In this document: piece after piece, positions 26,438 through 58,566 of the stretch
Numbering within the stretch: the first letter of the stretch is position 1
Layout: each line of letters opens with the position of its first letter
Virus record (IMG/VR): IMGVR_UViG_3300022680_000058
Location: 83,980-147,979 of that record
DNA length: 64,000 bases
Source of the DNA: a virus
Direction: 5' to 3' (one strand)
Made by a program: the position numbers and the translations under genes
Notes under the pieces: model-generated
Seen by the model: the letters and a program-made list of their open reading frames with translations, nothing else
Told to the model about the DNA's origin: nothing
Database searches by the model: none

Positions 26438-26499
26438 ACTCCAGAAAGAGAAAGGGCCACCATAGTCTCACCATGGCAGCCCTAACGTATTGAAAACAT

Positions 26500-26865
26500 T
26501 GGAGGCGGTCAGAGTCGAACTGACGTCCACACCCCCTCTGCTCGTGAGCTCTACGTGCGTATCTCCTGATCAATCTCGGCGTCATCGAGTTCAGGAGCAA
26601 ACTCTCTGAGCCAGTCGTGCGAGATGTCAGCCGCGCAGGTTACAGAATGAGTCACACACGAGACACTCACTCACTACGCGCCGCTAATGGCGCCCCTTGT
26701 TCCCATAGCAGCAGTCTGGGAGGGACGTGAGATTACGCCGCCAGGCTCATCTCAGGATAGCTGTCAGTGTTGGCAACTGGTTGTTCGTCCTGTTTGACGC
26801 ACAAGGACGATCCTCGGCACGCTCACACAAACGTCATGGGATCTGTCGAAACCTTTTTCGCCCCC
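26500..26865 (-). ncRNA. ssrA: tmRNA, tag peptide (A)ANTDSYPEMSLAA*
   Basis: 5' GGGGGCGAAAAAGGTTTCGAC; 3' GTCAGTTCGACTCTGACCGCCTCCA; acceptor with G3:U70; tag ORF 26774..26733; 366 nt. Confidence 0.95.
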
Positions 26866-26890: not shown

Positions 26891-27739
26891 TCAGCCACCT
26901 TCTTCGATGTCCTCGATGATTCCGGCGAGACCCTTGATCGCCTTGGCCTCGGAATCTCCGATCGCCCAGAGCACACCCTTGATGAATCCGTCTCCGAGAA
27001 CTTTCGCTGTCTTCGGGTTCTCGATGACCTTCCGGGCGAGTGACTTCTTCGGGGCGAGCACGACAGGACTCTCCGTCGTACCCTTCTGCCCCTTCGCATC
27101 TCGAACCGTCGTTTTCCCCGTCTCCAGCATATTCTCCAGAGCAGCCTTCTGCTCTTCCGGAGAGAGGTCGGCGAGTTCCACAGCCGCACTCATCGAGATC
27201 TTCCCAGCCTCGACAGCGTTTTTGACCTCGGGAATGCAGTCCAAAACCTTCAGCCAGTTGGCGATGGCCGTAGCAGAGACACCGAAGATGACGCCGACCT
27301 CGGCGTTGTTCTTCCCCCTCTGCTTATACCGCTCGGCCTTTTCCGCCTTGGCGATCGGGTCATCATCGACGCGGTGCTCGTTCTCACTCAGAAAGATCCC
27401 CATGATGTGCTCATCACTTCCACGTTTGAGCATGGCAGGGACCTCGATGGGCTGCTCTCCCATCGACAAGAGCTTCTCATTCGCCTTTCTGGCTGCGACC
27501 ACACGACGTCGACCGGCGACCACGAGAGCCCTGTCCCCATCCTTCCGGATCGCGATGGGCTGGATGATACCGTTGACCATGATGTTCTTGACCATCTCCG
27601 GAGAAATCGGCTTCTTGAGCCGCTTCATGTCGTAGAGGTCATGCTCCGGACCATCGTCTGTATCGAGACCAATAATCACAAGGTCTTTTGGATCAAACGA
27701 GTACGCCGTCACCCGCTTCTCGAAGGCGTGCTTCCCCAT
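26891..27739 (-). CDS. ParB/Spo0J-like protein (ParB-N + HTH)
   Basis: GIIQPIAI...VVAGRRRV...SENEHR...AEVGVIFGVSATAIANWL. Confidence 0.85.
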   Translation of the reverse strand: MGKHAFEKRVTAYSFDPKDLVIIGLDTDDGPEHDLYDMKRLKKPISPEMVKNIMVNGIIQPIAIRKDGDRALVVAGRRRVVAARKANEKLLSMGEQPIEVPAMLKRGSDEHIMGIFLSENEHRVDDDPIAKAEKAERYKQRGKNNAEVGVIFGVSATAIANWLKVLDCIPEVKNAVEAGKISMSAAVELADLSPEEQKAALENMLETGKTTVRDAKGQKGTTESPVVLAPKKSLARKVIENPKTAKVLGDGFIKGVLWAIGDSEAKAIKGLAGIIEDIEEGG

Positions 27740-27762
27740 ATCTCCATCTCCGTCTTTCTTGC

Positions 27763-27918
27763 TCACCCTGGAACTCCAATCAGAGCTGCGAGGAAACCAA
27801 TGGTTCCTCCGATATACCAAGGGGCCATGATGACAGCGAGCAATATCGCACCAGCAACGATGTTCAACCCCTCGGCAATCATCCTGACCAGCGACTCAAC
27901 CATCTTTGCCCACGTCAT
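27763..27918 (-). CDS. 51-aa hydrophobic membrane peptide (below ORF-track cutoff)
   Basis: MTWAKMVESLVRMIAEGLNIVAGAILLAVIMAPWYIGGTIGFLAALIGVPG*; GGAG RBS. Confidence 0.55.
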   Translation of the reverse strand: MTWAKMVESLVRMIAEGLNIVAGAILLAVIMAPWYIGGTIGFLAALIGVPG

Positions 27919-27946: not shown

Positions 27947-28108
27947 TGTGTCGCGATGACAAAGTGTACACCACACCGCCGGGTAAGGCGGCGACAGGCG
28001 GACAAACCTGCTCCTCTGGGGTTTCAATCCAGCGTGCGTTCTGGGGTGGCAGCCCCAATGTCCGATCACTTGTCATCACGAGCGCCCCTCTGCCAAGGGA
28101 ACGACACA
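27947..28108 (-). ncRNA. Multibranch structured RNA A
   Basis: Ends pair (TGTGTCG/CGACACA; CGATGACAAAGTG/CACTTGTCATCACG) enclosing five short hairpins. Confidence 0.6.
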
Positions 28109-28113
28109 CAATG

Positions 28114-28236
28114 CGGTAGGGTAGGCTGGACTCGAACCAGCTAGTGACACGGAGACACTCTTTTTTGAGTATCAGAATGGCGACGAAATCAAAACGACCC
28201 ATTCCGACTAGCAACTTCCGTATCGCCACGCTCCCT
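28114..28236 (-). ncRNA. tRNA-like element 1 (non-canonical)
   Basis: T-arm GCTGG-TTCGAGT-CCAGC, imperfect acceptor AGGGAG/CTACCCT, 3' ACCG; oversized middle. Confidence 0.55.
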
Positions 28237-28255
28237 GTGAGCTCTCACCCCAAAA

Positions 28256-28398
28256 AGGAAGTCTAGCCTTTCTCCTCAACTAAAAGCACAACACTTCAAA
28301 GTGCTATGAATCGCCTAATTAGGGCGGTCTAGTCTCGATCCTGGCACACGTAGTCCAAAAGTCCCTTGCAGCAACAGGGCGGTACTGGGCTGACTTCC
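28256..28398 (-). ncRNA. Multibranch structured RNA B
   Basis: Closing stem GGAAGTCAGCC/GGCTAGACTTCC then U-run; internal hairpins. Confidence 0.55.
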
Positions 28399-28505
28399 TG
28401 GTGACGATGGCTGGACTCGAACCAGCGCCTCCCCTCGATACTTCCAGGGCTACCTTCCTCTACAAGGTTTCGGTCTCCTAATCCCTTGCAGGCGGGTCAT
28501 CGCTC
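28399..28505 (-). ncRNA. tRNA-like element 2 (non-canonical)
   Basis: Same 17-nt T-arm as element 1, acceptor (A)GCGATG/CATCGT(C), 3' ACCA; no standard anticodon arm. Confidence 0.6.
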
Positions 28506-28536
28506 AATATGGAGGTACCAATTCCACGAGCCCCGC

Positions 28537-29012
28537 TTAGTACACATCGTCAATTCGCGCTTGCTTTTCTTGACAACCAATCCGGACAAGGCGAGATGCT
28601 GGGCTTCCAGCATCGAACCTCGAAAAATTGTCCCTGGCGATTCGCCAGACGCCAAGCGCCACCTCACTCTCAAGTCTGTCCGGCCAGATTCCTCCACCTG
28701 GCTCCAGTTTCAGTCCGCACAATGCGGAAACCGTCGCACCATCGAGCTCAACCACCACCCGACAGCACAGACCTTTCTAGGCCCACTCCAACCAGGGCAC
28801 CACACGCCCTCGGACAGCTTCAGTGGAAAGTCGAGGACCCGCCCCTCGATGAGACCTGACGCGCCCATTACAACGTCCGTCTCTTCCCAGCCGGGAGACA
28901 GAGACCAAAGAAAAGTCCCGAGGCCATGCCAGATGGTTTTTCTTTCATAACACCTGGGCGACCAGTCTCCCTTATCGAGTTCTTCCGCATTGATCGAGGG
29001 TGGTCGACTCAA
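28537..29012 (-). pseudogene. Probable frameshifted ORF
   Basis: ORFs 28710..29012 and 28537..28758 join if one G is added at GTCGGGTGGTG (~28760). Confidence 0.35.
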
Positions 29013-29087
29013 ACCTCACACGGCGACTGCACCGTATGGGTGGCGCCCATGATTGACACGCCTCGCCTCCACGAATGCTTAGAACCC

Positions 29088-29175
29088 GGTGGGAAGCCGG
29101 GGAATCGAACCCCAAGGCCCAGTGAAAACGACGTGAAGCAACCCGTGTAAGCTTCTATCATTTATGCCGCTTCCC
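29088..29175 (-). ncRNA. tRNA-like element 3 (non-canonical)
   Basis: Perfect 7-bp acceptor GGGAAGC/GCTTCCC, discriminator A + CC(G), T-arm TGGGG-TTCGATT-CCCCG; D/anticodon arms do not form. Confidence 0.65.
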
Positions 29176-29176
29176 A

Positions 29177-29270
29177 TGGCGCGAACAAAACAAGAGTACA
29201 TGGACTCTTTATCGGAACTCTGCCCTGACCGACATGAAAGGAGAGCATTCACTCTCATCTGTCCGCGTCC
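29177..29270 (-). ncRNA. Cloverleaf-like structured RNA C ending in CCA
   Basis: CGCGGACAGA/TTTGTTCGCG closing stem, three internal hairpins; starts at predicted TSS. Confidence 0.55.
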
Positions 29271-29275
29271 CACCT

Positions 29276-29304
29276 ATCATGATGCTGTGAACAGCGACTG
29301 TCAA
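29276..29304 (-). promoter_or_regulatory. Sigma70-like promoter driving ncRNA island
   Basis: TTGACA-17-CATGAT. Confidence 0.7.
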
Positions 29305-30611: not shown

Positions 30612-30929
30612 ATGGGAGCAGGAGCAGTGAGAAGCTTGAGAGTAGTCGAAGATCCCCACGAGGATTTGCAGGAACTCCTGGAGGCCATGGTCACCAGGCT
30701 CGTCGATAGACCTGATGACATCGTCATCAAAACCATGAAAGCAGCGGACGGATCATCAATCACGTTCGAGGTATTCTGCGACGAAGACGACGTTGGCGCC
30801 GTTCTCGGGTCAAGGGGACGTCACGCCGAGGCGATGAGAACACTCCTCACCGCCGCCGCCGCAGCGATGAGGACACGCGTCTACGTCCAGTTCCTGTCGA
30901 GGGACCACGATGGCATGCCGCCCAGATAG
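30612..30929 (+). CDS. khpA: KhpA-like KH-domain RNA-binding protein
   Basis: ELLEAMVTRLVDRPDDI...DDVGAVLGSRGRHAEAMRTLL. Confidence 0.85.
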   Translation: MGAGAVRSLRVVEDPHEDLQELLEAMVTRLVDRPDDIVIKTMKAADGSSITFEVFCDEDDVGAVLGSRGRHAEAMRTLLTAAAAAMRTRVYVQFLSRDHDGMPPR

Positions 30930-55421: not shown

Positions 55422-56624
55422 CTACAGGTGCGGAGGCTCCTTGGCGCCGGGGAAGAGCTTCCTCCCCGTTACGTGGACCTGTTTGAGACCTTCTTTGGAG
55501 TCGGGGTCGACTGGAAGCCTGACGACCTTTCCGTCACCGTCAGGACTCTTCTCGATCTCGACGAGGTTCTCGGCTTCGAGTTCATTGACGATCTGTCCCA
55601 GGCTCTTCTCATCAAGCTGAGCCATCTCCATGAACCAGACGAGTCCTTTCGCGTCCAGTCCAGGTTTTTTGATCTGCAACTCCTGAAGGAGCTTTTTTTT
55701 CGCCATGGCGAGGTATTGAGGTGTCATCTCGATCTCTGGAGAGAGTTTCACCTCACCCTCGGGGACATTCGGTTCGAGCTCCCCGGAATACACCACAACG
55801 AATGAACCATCATCCTTCTCCTCGAAGACCAGAGCACCCATGGCGACCATATCGAAGATGATACTGGCAAGGTTTTCCGAAGCGATAACCCCAGAAGCGA
55901 GAACAAACACATCGCGTTCTGTGAGCCCACCTGGAGCGACATCCCGAGCTCTTCTGAGGAGTTCTGATTGGAATTCTCTGGTAATAATGCCAAACATAGC
56001 GTCAAGGGGCAGAGTCTCTATCTCCTGAGCCTTTTTGAAGAGCTTGCTTGCCTTCACCTGTTCCTCGAACTCGGGAGTGTCTGGCTTGTGGTGCGTGATA
56101 GTAACAGGACCACCATCACCATCATCGGTGGCATCCATCATGAGGTCGGCAGCAGACCCGACGATAACCCAAGACCTGTCACCTCGTGGCCCGAACTCAC
56201 GAAGAACTCCCTGACGCGTCAGTCGAGCGAGTCCGCTCCGGACAGTCGACGGGTTGGCGTTCGGCTTGATCTTGCGGACCTCATCGACAGCATCTTTGAA
56301 GCTGAAGGTGTCCATCACGGTATCTTTGATGAGCTGCCGAAGGACAGTGATCACTCCCCTGTCTCTCTTCTTCGGTTCTTCGGACTTCTCGCTGTCGGCG
56401 TCCCCACCGAAGATTGCTTCGAGCTCCTTGATCTGTTCATCGACTTCGCTGAGCTCGGCTTCGATGGTGACTTTCTTTTTCAGAAGTTCCTCTTTCCTCT
56501 CCCGAAGGACATTGAGGCCAGCATTCGCCTCATCGAGCCTCTCTTGCTTTCGCTGTTCCTCACGCTTTTTGAATTCCTTGAAATCGAACAACTCTTCCTC
56601 CGCTACAAAGCAAAACGTTTCCAT
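55422..56624 (-). CDS. Coiled-coil plus multiple winged-helix-like domain protein
   Basis: N-terminal coiled coil; PSTVRSGLARLTRQGVL; LGQIVNELEAENLV. Confidence 0.65.
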   Translation of the reverse strand: METFCFVAEEELFDFKEFKKREEQRKQERLDEANAGLNVLRERKEELLKKKVTIEAELSEVDEQIKELEAIFGGDADSEKSEEPKKRDRGVITVLRQLIKDTVMDTFSFKDAVDEVRKIKPNANPSTVRSGLARLTRQGVLREFGPRGDRSWVIVGSAADLMMDATDDGDGGPVTITHHKPDTPEFEEQVKASKLFKKAQEIETLPLDAMFGIITREFQSELLRRARDVAPGGLTERDVFVLASGVIASENLASIIFDMVAMGALVFEEKDDGSFVVVYSGELEPNVPEGEVKLSPEIEMTPQYLAMAKKKLLQELQIKKPGLDAKGLVWFMEMAQLDEKSLGQIVNELEAENLVEIEKSPDGDGKVVRLPVDPDSKEGLKQVHVTGRKLFPGAKEPPHL

Positions 56625-56740
56625 AAACCTAAATCATCACAAACGTTTGTCAAGGTATTATGACAGCCATCTCACACCTGATTACAGGGGGAAGTATTTT
56701 TTCGTCTTGTCAACGACTTACGGATGCCCATAATGGGTGG

Positions 56741-56826
56741 TGCATGCGGCGGGACTACTGATACAAGCTCCTTTCCATGATGCCCCAGGGGTCGACAATG
56801 GCTGCGCTCCCTGGGGTTTTCTTTTT
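56741..56826 (+). ncRNA. Putative sRNA 1 of tandem trio
   Basis: TTGTCA-16-CATAAT promoter; GGGACTACTG; CCCCAGGG/CCCTGGGG hairpin + U tract. Confidence 0.6.
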
Positions 56827-56868
56827 CACCCATCCTTGACATTCCATCCTCAGAGGATAAGTTGATCT

Positions 56869-56936
56869 ACAGCCGATGGTCGCGGTGCCATGCACGCCGC
56901 AGTCACCCCCTGGGGATGGGCCTCAGGGGGTTTTTT
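56869..56936 (+). ncRNA. Putative sRNA 2 of tandem trio
   Basis: TTGACA-16-TAAGTT promoter; CCCCCTGGGG/CCTCAGGGGG hairpin + T6. Confidence 0.6.
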
Positions 56937-56970
56937 ATTGACAGAGCATAATCGATGCACATAATGTGAC

Positions 56971-57031
56971 TGTTGGTTGAGGGACTACTGGCCTGGCCCC
57001 CTGGGAATGGTTCTCAGGGGGCTACTTTTTT
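56971..57031 (+). ncRNA. Putative sRNA 3 of tandem trio
   Basis: TTGACA-16-CATAAT promoter; GGGACTACTG; GCCCCCTGGGAA/TTCTCAGGGGGC hairpin + T6. Confidence 0.6.
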
Positions 57032-57043
57032 AAGGAGCACAGA

Positions 57044-57244
57044 ATGTCAAACGATCCAATCGTGGTCGAACTCACCAGAGAGGAAGCCCAAGCCCTGGCC
57101 GACTCCACAAAGGAAACCATCTGGTTTTTGAAAGGAGCGAAATCGAAGTCGAGCAGTGGAAGGGTGAGAAAAGCCCTCAAGGACGTTCGAGATCGACTCC
57201 TGAAAGGGCTTCAGGATGTGAAGGGTTCCAGTGCCTCATCGTGA
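57044..57244 (+). CDS. Small hypothetical protein
   Basis: TAAGGAG RBS. Confidence 0.6.
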   Translation: MSNDPIVVELTREEAQALADSTKETIWFLKGAKSKSSSGRVRKALKDVRDRLLKGLQDVKGSSASS

Positions 57245-57636
57245 CAGCCGAATCCCTCTTTGTGGAAGGTGAAGCCGTTCTCATCATCGGCCCATACGTG
57301 CCGTTGATAGGGCTTCCCTTCCGGGATCGGAGCTCCACACACACAAGTGTGCTCTTTACGAGCCTTCTTGACGAAACGGCTCGACGAGAAAAGAATCTTG
57401 GGGCCTTCGTAATCCATGACTACCTCTCTCCTTTGCACTGTTGACGCGCCGCCGCCTGAATATCTGACATGTCAACGTTGTCAACGTGTTCACAGAACCC
57501 GTCAAAGCACGACGGACAGATCCCATGAGTAACTGTGTCGTCGGGCATCAGGCCCTTGTTGACCCACTTCCCGTCAACAAGGACCCGCTTACACCATGAG
57601 CATTGCCGATACATCCCACACCCCCCCAACGACGGC

Positions 57637-58566
57637 TTACGCCGCCTTCTGGACGTTATCGAGGCTTGTCCAAACAGTTCCAGCGGCTGTCTTGAGACCA
57701 ACCCTCTCACACCCTTCATTGTATTTGTCAGGACCGCGCCAGAAAACCACACCGACTGTCCCATCAGGGGCATCACCGCCGTCAACGACCTTGACCTTGA
57801 CACCCTTCCTGACCCCGTCATTGTCCTGGCGAGCAGCCGATTCTTGCTCTGCTCTCTCTCGGGCCTTTTCGGCTTCCGCGAAACGCTTCTCACACTCATG
57901 ACAGCGAATAGTTCCGCCCTTGCCGTCGTAGGCAGGGACGTAACCGTGGCCACCACAAACCGGGCAGCTTCCGTCCCAATTCTCATGACCTTTGACTGTC
58001 CGAACATTGGCGGCAGCGGTCCAATAGGTCTCGCCGTCGTCGCCATTGAATCCAACTCGCTCGCCGTAGTGCGAGTTGCCGACCCAGAAAACGCGCCCCT
58101 TGGTGCCTTGCTTAACCTTGCAGCGTTTCTTGTAGAGCTCGACATACGAGCCCTTGCGAGGCTGGCGGGCGCGGTCTGTCGCCTCAGCAACGCGAAGCTC
58201 ATGATTCCGGACCACCAGCTTCTCGTTCTCGGCGTCCTGCCATCTGTCATAGAGCGCCTTGACTTCGTCAGTGGCATCAACAATAGCCGTCGAGTCCCAC
58301 TCTTCCCAGGGGCGGCTGTAGTAGCCAGCGTTGCTGTCGTAGACGCCCAAGCTCACCTTCCTGGGCTCGCCCTTGTCGAAATCCCAGACGAGAGCGAAAC
58401 ACTGAGTTCCCCAGACGTCGCTCATGATCCGGACCGACTCCGATCCCTTGTCGAGGACACAGCCGACGAAGGCGACCTCTTCCCACTGGGTCTCGATCGC
58501 CCGGTATCTACCAGCTTTGTAAGGGGCAACCTGAAAGGACTGAGTTCTTCGGAATGTGACGGCCAT
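57637..58566 (-). CDS. Early protein with duplicated SH3/KOW-like domain flanking a zinc ribbon
   Basis: RKG..V....GT.G.VFW.G...ERVG....G..WT...NV twice; CPVCGG...CHEC between. Confidence 0.7.
   Translation of the reverse strand: MAVTFRRTQSFQVAPYKAGRYRAIETQWEEVAFVGCVLDKGSESVRIMSDVWGTQCFALVWDFDKGEPRKVSLGVYDSNAGYYSRPWEEWDSTAIVDATDEVKALYDRWQDAENEKLVVRNHELRVAEATDRARQPRKGSYVELYKKRCKVKQGTKGRVFWVGNSHYGERVGFNGDDGETYWTAAANVRTVKGHENWDGSCPVCGGHGYVPAYDGKGGTIRCHECEKRFAEAEKARERAEQESAARQDNDGVRKGVKVKVVDGGDAPDGTVGVVFWRGPDKYNEGCERVGLKTAAGTVWTSLDNVQKAA

Follow-up and report, generated by a model that had tools for sequence, protein, structure and literature searches.

In phage lambda, the strong promoter pR' is followed by a short terminated transcript, 6S RNA, which ends at tR' directly upstream of a gene, and expression occurs by read-through only. 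Small RNAs (sRNAs) have hardly been explored in strictly lytic phages. In phage phiKZ, one sRNA was predicted by differential RNA-seq but could not be confirmed (PMC8244752). Genes of sRNAs are classically sought as orphan pairs of promoter and terminator, and tandem siblings such as OmrA/OmrB and PrrF1/PrrF2 (with the read-through product PrrH) are conserved across species, were detected experimentally, depend on Hfq and have validated targets (PMC4211561). In the T4-type phages RB49/phi1, T4/PST and KVP40/nt-1, promoter early stem-loop (PeSL) elements join terminators to strong early promoters; they lie beside ORFans in hyperplastic regions, and recombination between them gives chimeras (PMC2839356, PMC4122927). 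Here, an array of three tandem promoter-terminator units (56707-57031, plus strand, 325 bases) is described in a 64,000-nucleotide stretch of viral DNA (the window), which is the final 64 kb of the 147,979-bp IMG/VR record IMGVR_UViG_3300022680_000058 (positions 83,980 to 147,979; estimated completeness 77%). The description is based on this one metagenomic record.

The array is a real and non-random sequence feature, and its units probably make small RNAs early in infection, as judged from their sequence. The explanation tentatively preferred is that they are three autonomous small-RNA units formed by module shuffling, with RNAs 1 and 3 being siblings by GGGACUACUG and unit 3 doubling as the attenuated leader of a 66-codon open reading frame (ORF66). 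Host sigma70 polymerase would read the three units early in infection, and each would release a terminated RNA of ~55-85 nt.

Anatomy and rarity of the array

Three sigma70-like promoters (P1-P3) are each followed by a strong hairpin and T-run (T1-T3), with no credible ORF in between, as a preliminary description of the window had claimed (Table 1). P1-P3 are predicted promoters by their match to the consensus (TTGACA and TATAAT-like hexamers, 16-18 bp apart), and P3 is among the three best matches of the 148-kb record. P2 was absent from the promoter-scan output because its -10 fits the consensus at only 3/6 positions; this hexamer resembles the TA[AG][AG][AT]T hexamers usual in the phage. 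The direct contact between the -35 of P3 and the T-run of T2 was also borne out (GGGGGTTTTTTATTGACA). T1-T3 have the form of intrinsic terminators, GC-rich hairpins with 6-9 T in their tails, and their reverse strands lack a T-run, so they are predicted to stop plus-strand transcription only. The hairpins begin 24-42 nt downstream of the predicted transcription starts, leaving 24-42 nt of cargo per promoter-terminator pair (42 and 33 nt in units 1 and 2). Every ORF overlapping the units had a negative coding score in a codon-usage model trained on the record. By prediction, each unit therefore has what is looked for in a sibling sRNA gene, an independent promoter and terminator around an ORF-less transcript of 50-300 nt. 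The hairpins of T1-T3 were retained in the fold of a hypothetical read-through RNA. A decayed half-terminator, T0, precedes P1, and no matching 5' arm was found upstream of it.

Such sites are rare in this phage. Scanning of both strands of the record gave ~15 terminator-like sites at -17 kcal/mol or better. Strong intergenic terminators number six, half of them at the array, which is the only same-strand terminator cluster within 400 nt in the record. No same-strand tandem terminators were found in the records of five relatives (441 kb in total). A 10-mer common to both 5' regions, such as units 1 and 3 have, arose in 27 of 20,000 shuffles (~1.4e-3), with its position relative to the -10 not required.

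Table 1. Positions of the array elements and of adjoining or related features in the window.
Feature	Position	Strand	Description
Divergent promoter-like site of the 400-aa gene	56626-56653	-	TTGACAAACG..., 16-nt spacer, TAGGTT; conserved class; back-to-back with P1
T0	56685-56702	+	Decayed half-terminator CAGGGGGAAGTATTTTTT; 4 nt before P1 -35; homologous to 3' arm and T-run of T2/T3
P1 (predicted promoter)	56707-56734	+	TTGTCA-16-CATAAT; 10/12 consensus positions
RNA 1 (predicted)	56741-56826	+	~80-86 nt; 5' hairpin domain, then T1 and T-run; fold -31.1 kcal/mol
10-mer GGGACTACTG, first copy	56751-56760	+	16 nt after -10
T1 (predicted terminator)	56783-56816	+	-19.9 kcal/mol; T-run TTTTCTTTTT
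P2 (predicted promoter)	56836-56863	+	TTGACA-16-TAAGTT; 9/12 consensus positions; weaker promoter
RNA 2 (predicted)	56870-56937	+	~60-66 nt; 5' hairpin CGCGGUG/CGCCGCA, then T2 and T-run; fold -31.8 kcal/mol
T2 (predicted terminator)	56905-56931	+	-19.9 kcal/mol; T-run TTTTTTATT
P3 (predicted promoter)	56938-56965	+	TTGACA-16-CATAAT; 11/12 consensus positions; -35 abuts T2 T-run
RNA 3 (predicted), also ORF66 leader	56972-57031	+	~55-60 nt; short open 5' end, 10-mer, then T3; z = -2.95
10-mer GGGACTACTG, second copy	56981-56990	+	15 nt after -10
T3 (predicted terminator)	56994-57024	+	-21.8 kcal/mol; CTTTTTT; T-run 57026-57031
Shine-Dalgarno sequence of ORF66	57032-57037	+	AAGGAG; directly after T3 T-run; N6 spacing to ATG
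ORF66	57044-57244	+	66 codons
ORF68	57417-57211	-	Convergent to ORF66
Terminator of ORF68	57209-57173	-	Inside ORF66; -15.6 kcal/mol
Class-A promoter examples	58619-58591 (-), 60142 (-), 60252 (+), 62278 (+), 33266 (+), 56653-56626 (-)

Relationship between the units

When pairwise alignments were compared with shuffled sequences, units 1 and 3 scored ~6 and units 2 and 3 ~7 standard deviations above the shuffles, and units 1 and 2 were at background. The earlier claim that the units are paralogous thus holds in parts: promoter and 5' element recur in units 1 and 3 and the terminator in units 2 and 3, but no block is common to units 1 and 2, which are unrelated. The blocks shared by units 1 and 3 are a CAGGGGG/T-run half-terminator, the -35, GATGCNCATAATG and the 10-mer GGGACTACTG, at like distance from the -10. 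The 10-mer, which the preliminary description had noticed near both 5' ends, is identical at 10/10 positions, and these are the only two copies in the record. The pattern CAGGGGG-N0-6-TTTTTT occurs three times in the record (both strands), always at the array locus, and GATGC[C/A]CATAATG[G/T]G (GATGCNCATAAT) is found only at P1 and P3. Between the blocks common to units 1 and 3, identity drops to ~20-50%, and beside the 10-mer it is only ~20-33%. In the predicted folds, the 10-mer is half-sequestered in RNA 1 (GGGA paired with UCCU, CUACUG partly open) and mostly unpaired in RNA 3.

T2 and T3 are 77% identical over 43 nt and differ by two double substitutions that keep the pair, A-U to G-C in the outermost pair and G-C to A-U in the pair next to the loop. 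These compensatory changes point to selection on the hairpin, as does the conservation of the 10-mer and of the hairpin pairs while the flanks have near-random identity. All three hairpins had been called related, with ATGG in the loop; ATGG was found in all of them, by common descent in T2 and T3, but in T1 as no more than a 4-mer.

The units therefore form a mosaic, in which a promoter-plus-5' module and a terminator module were combined independently. The proposed scheme of a variable 5' seed on a constant 3' scaffold does not fit these data, since units 1 and 3 differ in their terminators and units 2 and 3 differ at their 5' ends. Module A, common to units 1 and 3, would consist of terminator arm, T-run, promoter and GGGACUACUG, and module B, common to units 2 and 3, of the CCCCCUGGG...CUCAGGGGG terminator. 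Their shuffling may have resembled the recombination of PeSL promoter/stem-loop cassettes seen in T4-type phages. RNAs 1 and 3 would be siblings, and the 10-mer that they share, ~10-20 nt from the 5' end and largely accessible, would probably be what a host RNA or an RNA-binding protein recognises. RNA 2 would be an unrelated RNA of two hairpins. This explanation supposes that the predicted promoters fire, that the predicted terminators stop the transcripts and that the RNAs act in trans.

ORF66 and unit 3 as a leader

T3 stands in the leader of ORF66, with the ATG beginning 13 nt after its T-run. Unit 3 is therefore also a terminator-containing (attenuated) leader, which the preliminary description had overlooked, and T3 would in the preferred explanation have the second role of attenuating transcription into ORF66. 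A canonical Shine-Dalgarno sequence and a 66-codon open frame placed exactly after T3 are unlikely to be due to chance. The coding score of ORF66 is weakly positive (3.7). Its protein is an ORFan: the only match among 5.8 billion proteins was itself, and no Pfam or PHROG family was matched.

A second unit of this kind was found at 18650-18411 (minus strand), where a promoter (TTGACA-17-CATGAT) is followed by a structured leader of ~170 nt, a terminator of -24.6 kcal/mol and AGGAG...ATG of a gene of 236 amino acids (18411-17701). Because the terminator lies directly before the AGGAG...ATG, the RNA unit there is also a terminator-containing leader. The junctions of terminator and Shine-Dalgarno sequence are nearly identical in unit 3 and at 18650-18411 (GGGGCTACGTTTTTTAGGAG against GGGGGCTACTTTTTTAAGGAG), with GGGGCTAC-TTTTTT-AGGAG in common.

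ORF68 runs towards ORF66 from the other side, and its minus-strand terminator should shield the array from antisense read-through. It encodes a real small cysteine-motif protein of 68 amino acids, with five small metagenome homologues (E 5e-9 to 9e-4), a conserved motif R..A..H-x-C-x-C-G..I..G..Y and no Pfam family. ORF68 also matches repeats in longer proteins (939, 531 and 799 amino acids; 7-9 matched stretches).

The segment 56836-56851, around the -35 of P2, is complementary to the start region of ORF66 (57035-57050) at 13/16 positions, which could be chance. In the fold of the P1 read-through RNA this segment sequesters the AUG of ORF66; a transcript from P3 would lack it.

Comparison with described systems

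Like the genes of OmrA/OmrB and PrrF1/PrrF2, the units are adjacent, each with its own (predicted) promoter and Rho-independent terminator, units 1 and 3 have a shared 5' element with a divergent remainder, and read-through of the first terminator might give an extra product. Unlike these siblings, the array is known from sequence alone and lies in a lytic-type phage. The identity of its units is limited to the 10-mer and the promoter, against 21 and 35 nt in OmrA/OmrB and 95% in PrrF.

The predicted promoter and short terminated RNA just before a gene recall lambda pR'-6S-tR'. The differences are that three units are stacked in place of one, that a 66-codon ORF is downstream in place of a late operon, that no Q homologue (PF06530, PF03589) was found in the record, which is 77% complete, and that the initial transcribed region lacks a -10-like pause element (neither the 10-mer nor its surroundings contain a hexamer that combines A at position 2 with T at position 6).

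Likeness to PeSLs is found at several levels. The phage has a T4-type head (gp23 capsid protein, E = 1e-60, and prohead protease), the array lies in an ORFan-rich variable region, and each of the junctions T0-P1, T1-P2 and T2-P3 consists of a stable stem-loop, an AT-rich run and a sigma70-like early promoter. Unit 3 is chimeric, as recombination between cassettes would give, and the last junction, at T3, ends in a Shine-Dalgarno sequence and a start codon. In contrast to PeSLs, units 1 and 2 enclose non-coding cargo without ORF or Shine-Dalgarno sequence, so that an ORFan is flanked only after T3. The array hairpins lie 24-42 nt inside the transcript and not around the promoter. GATGCNCATAAT and CAGGGGG..TTTTTT are confined to the locus and are not dispersed repeats, and the promoter class that is dispersed in this phage (class A, below) has no attached stem-loop.

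Partners, RNA families and relatives

Several results weigh against the preferred explanation. The preliminary description had suggested a search for targets in phage and host; in RNAduplex and exact-complement searches of the units, particularly their 5' parts, neither the start regions of 205 predicted phage genes nor the record as a whole offered any pairing better than for shuffled RNAs. Rfam models gave nothing in the region at gathering scores, nor over 56400-57300 with E of up to 10; anti-hemB came closest, with 17.5 bits where the cut-off is 49.5. Neither Hfq nor ProQ is encoded in the record. The array was present in no relative examined, leaving no cross-genome conservation or covariation. 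Unit 3, at least, is sufficiently explained in cis by the position of T3 ahead of ORF66 and its canonical Shine-Dalgarno sequence, and T0 before P1 together with the mosaic structure fits neutral cassette shuffling equally well.

Relatives were sought by protein and by DNA. The 400-amino-acid and 309-amino-acid proteins encoded on either side of the array and the 66-amino-acid product of ORF66 had no relatives in IMG/VR, and the 400- and 66-amino-acid proteins had none among 5.8 billion proteins. A blastn search against 50,697 phage records returned a 28-nt chance match and nothing else. When IMG/VR and JGI metagenomes were scanned with DNA patterns of the T2/T3 hairpin and of the promoter joined to the 10-mer, no match was obtained, and a looser pattern gave eight matches, all without promoter or hairpin. 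Capsid-protein relatives were found at 63-79% identity. The records of five of them contained only distant homologues of the 400-amino-acid protein and of ORF68, neither in a locus with an array, and no array with a different number of units, which the preliminary description had proposed to look for, was found in them.

A KhpA-type KH-domain protein is encoded at 30612-30929 (plus strand; PF13083, E = 1e-15, above the curated cut-off), and no close relative of it was found by a pattern scan of 185,579 species genomes. With this protein and a tmRNA (transfer-messenger RNA), the phage is RNA-rich, which favours the preferred explanation. It may be, although we consider it unlikely, that a lytic T4-like phage makes an early sRNA family from independently recombining mini-cassettes, as a quick source of riboregulators against host transcripts, possibly with its own KhpA-type protein.

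Other candidate partners were rejected. Three resemblances were judged to be within chance: that of the 10-mer complement to the 16S rRNA segment GGUAGUCC, a match of 7 bp to the region where ORF68 starts, and that of GGCGGGACTACTG to the ops element of RfaH. The motif CCCWGGG occurs 26 times genome-wide against ~23 expected, without enrichment, and a reading as dispersed protein-binding sites was dropped.

Alternative explanations

A region acting only in cis is possible but doubtful. Attenuated promoters or insulators would set a low or delayed level of ORF66, which polymerase from P3, and less often from P1 or P2, would reach by terminator read-through alone, and the short RNAs would be by-products, perhaps as with T4 delayed-early genes behind terminators or with PeSL stem-loops that damp transcription from upstream cassettes. 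This would account for the position of T3 at once before the AAGGAG-N6-ATG of ORF66, for the near-identical junction at 18650-18411, where promoter, non-coding leader, terminator, Shine-Dalgarno sequence and gene follow in the same order, and for the possible pairing of 56836-56851 with the ORF66 start region in P1 read-through RNA. It also agrees with the description of PeSL stem-loops as terminators or attenuators which prevent overexpression of downstream ORFans (PMC2839356). However, three promoters each blocked by their own strong terminator would be a poor feed for one gene, and ORF66 gains next to nothing from units 1 and 2. The hairpins of -20 kcal/mol have no rival in an alternative antiterminator fold, and the missing Q-type antiterminator and pause hexamer also count against this explanation. 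ORF66 itself, an ORFan with a weak coding score, overlaps an antisense terminator.

The scenario that the preliminary description had set against its own claim, stacked terminators left by deleted gene cassettes, stays alive because of the PeSL-like junctions and T0. Under it, PeSL-like junctions would have come to lie in tandem after loss of ORFans in a hyperplastic region, and the short RNAs would be functionless; we consider it improbable. The T4-type head, the ORFan-rich stretch ~7 kb from the record end, the PeSL layout of the junctions (polyC/polyG stem-loop, AT-run, -35, -10) and the absence of the array from every relative examined are all in its favour. So is unit 3, a chimera of units 1 and 2 which resembles the chimeric PeSLs made by recombination (PMC2839356, PMC4122927). 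Yet recombination of two PeSLs leaves one chimeric PeSL and not a promoter running straight into a terminator, and it is unlikely that three neighbouring ORFs were each lost cleanly. The coding fraction of the genome, ~90%, also speaks against scars. Promoters of the type in units 1 and 3 occur only at the array locus and are not a dispersed repeat, and the signs of selection on the 10-mer and the hairpin pairs would be unexpected in scars. Very improbable is a specialised RNA system of a known type, in which unit 2 would sponge unit 1, the array would guard ORF66 in the manner of a type III antitoxin, or the units would mimic CRISPR repeats. Two 7-mers of unit 2, CATGCAC and CGCCGCA, are indeed complementary to GTGCATG and TGCGGCG at the 5' end of unit 1, as had been pointed out, but their order is swapped around a palindromic GCATGC, so that only one can pair at a time and no single duplex forms. 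One of the unit 2 7-mers is moreover the 3' arm of the unit's own hairpin. The duplex energy was equalled or bettered by 15-21% of shuffled partners, and the suggested antagonism of unit 1 by unit 2 is rejected. The order of repeat, terminator and ORF recalls ToxI-ToxN, but tandem repeats that are processed from one RNA do not have a promoter and terminator for every unit, no relationship was found between units 1 and 2, and ORF66 matches neither ToxN/AbiQ nor any other Pfam or PHROG family. The idea of CRISPR-RNA mimics, or of a mini-array, found no match to any CRISPR-DR model at E up to 10 over 56400-57300.

Should the array units be expressed and act in trans, they would be a case of tandem sibling sRNAs used by a T4-like phage as infection begins, and cassette shuffling, a mechanism known for ORFans, would apply to RNA genes as well. 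As attenuators or scars only, they would still provide clear PeSL-style junctions outside the phages of enterobacteria, Yersinia and Vibrio from which such junctions were described.

Genome setting and promoter classes

The codon-usage model gave a run of minus-strand genes without a break at ~44.8-60.1 kb, in which the array and ORF66 are the sole plus-strand island. The island lies in ORFan-rich surroundings between the well-supported gene for the 400-amino-acid protein (55422-56624) and that for the 309-amino-acid protein (57637-58566), both on the minus strand and neither matching a known family in Pfam or PHROG. The annotated ATG of the former (56624) is only 1 nt from the -10 of its divergent promoter-like site; its real start is therefore probably the TTG at 56591, behind GGAGGA.

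Four of the TTGACA-type promoters listed genome-wide have a CAT[AG]AT -10 (56707, 56938, 18650 and 29304), and all of them head ORF-less transcripts. Three of the four continue with [A/G]GGTG. In this small sample (n=4), the hexamer would link units 1 and 3 to the other non-coding transcription units of the phage, and such promoters may be a separate subclass for its RNA genes. The other units with this -10, at 18650-18411 and in a tRNA-like array (27951-29304), are long (~180 nt and 1.3 kb) and highly structured, whereas the array units are minimal. A putative third GATGC..ATAAT promoter, at genome position 36758, was rejected as a gene junction with an overlapping ATG.

Most operons are headed by a conserved extended class-A promoter, TTGACA[A/G]ACGCAAATCATGG..CTAGATTG, which was found at no fewer than 9 sites (at least) and is often followed by a GGTGA[G/A]AGG leader. 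Its conserved spacer suggests recognition by something beyond sigma70.

Three further observations concern the record as a whole. The termini are a 99-bp perfect inverted repeat, an arrangement not usual in T4-type genomes and perhaps an artefact of assembly. The tmRNA is complete (26497-26865, minus strand; 118.8 bits against Rfam; tag peptide ANTDSYPEMSLAA) and adjoins a ParB-like gene (26891-27820). A protein of 737 amino acids (genome positions 73039-75252, minus strand) has a LAGLIDADG_3 domain (E = 1e-9); insertion of an intein or a homing endonuclease into a large gene is a possible reason.

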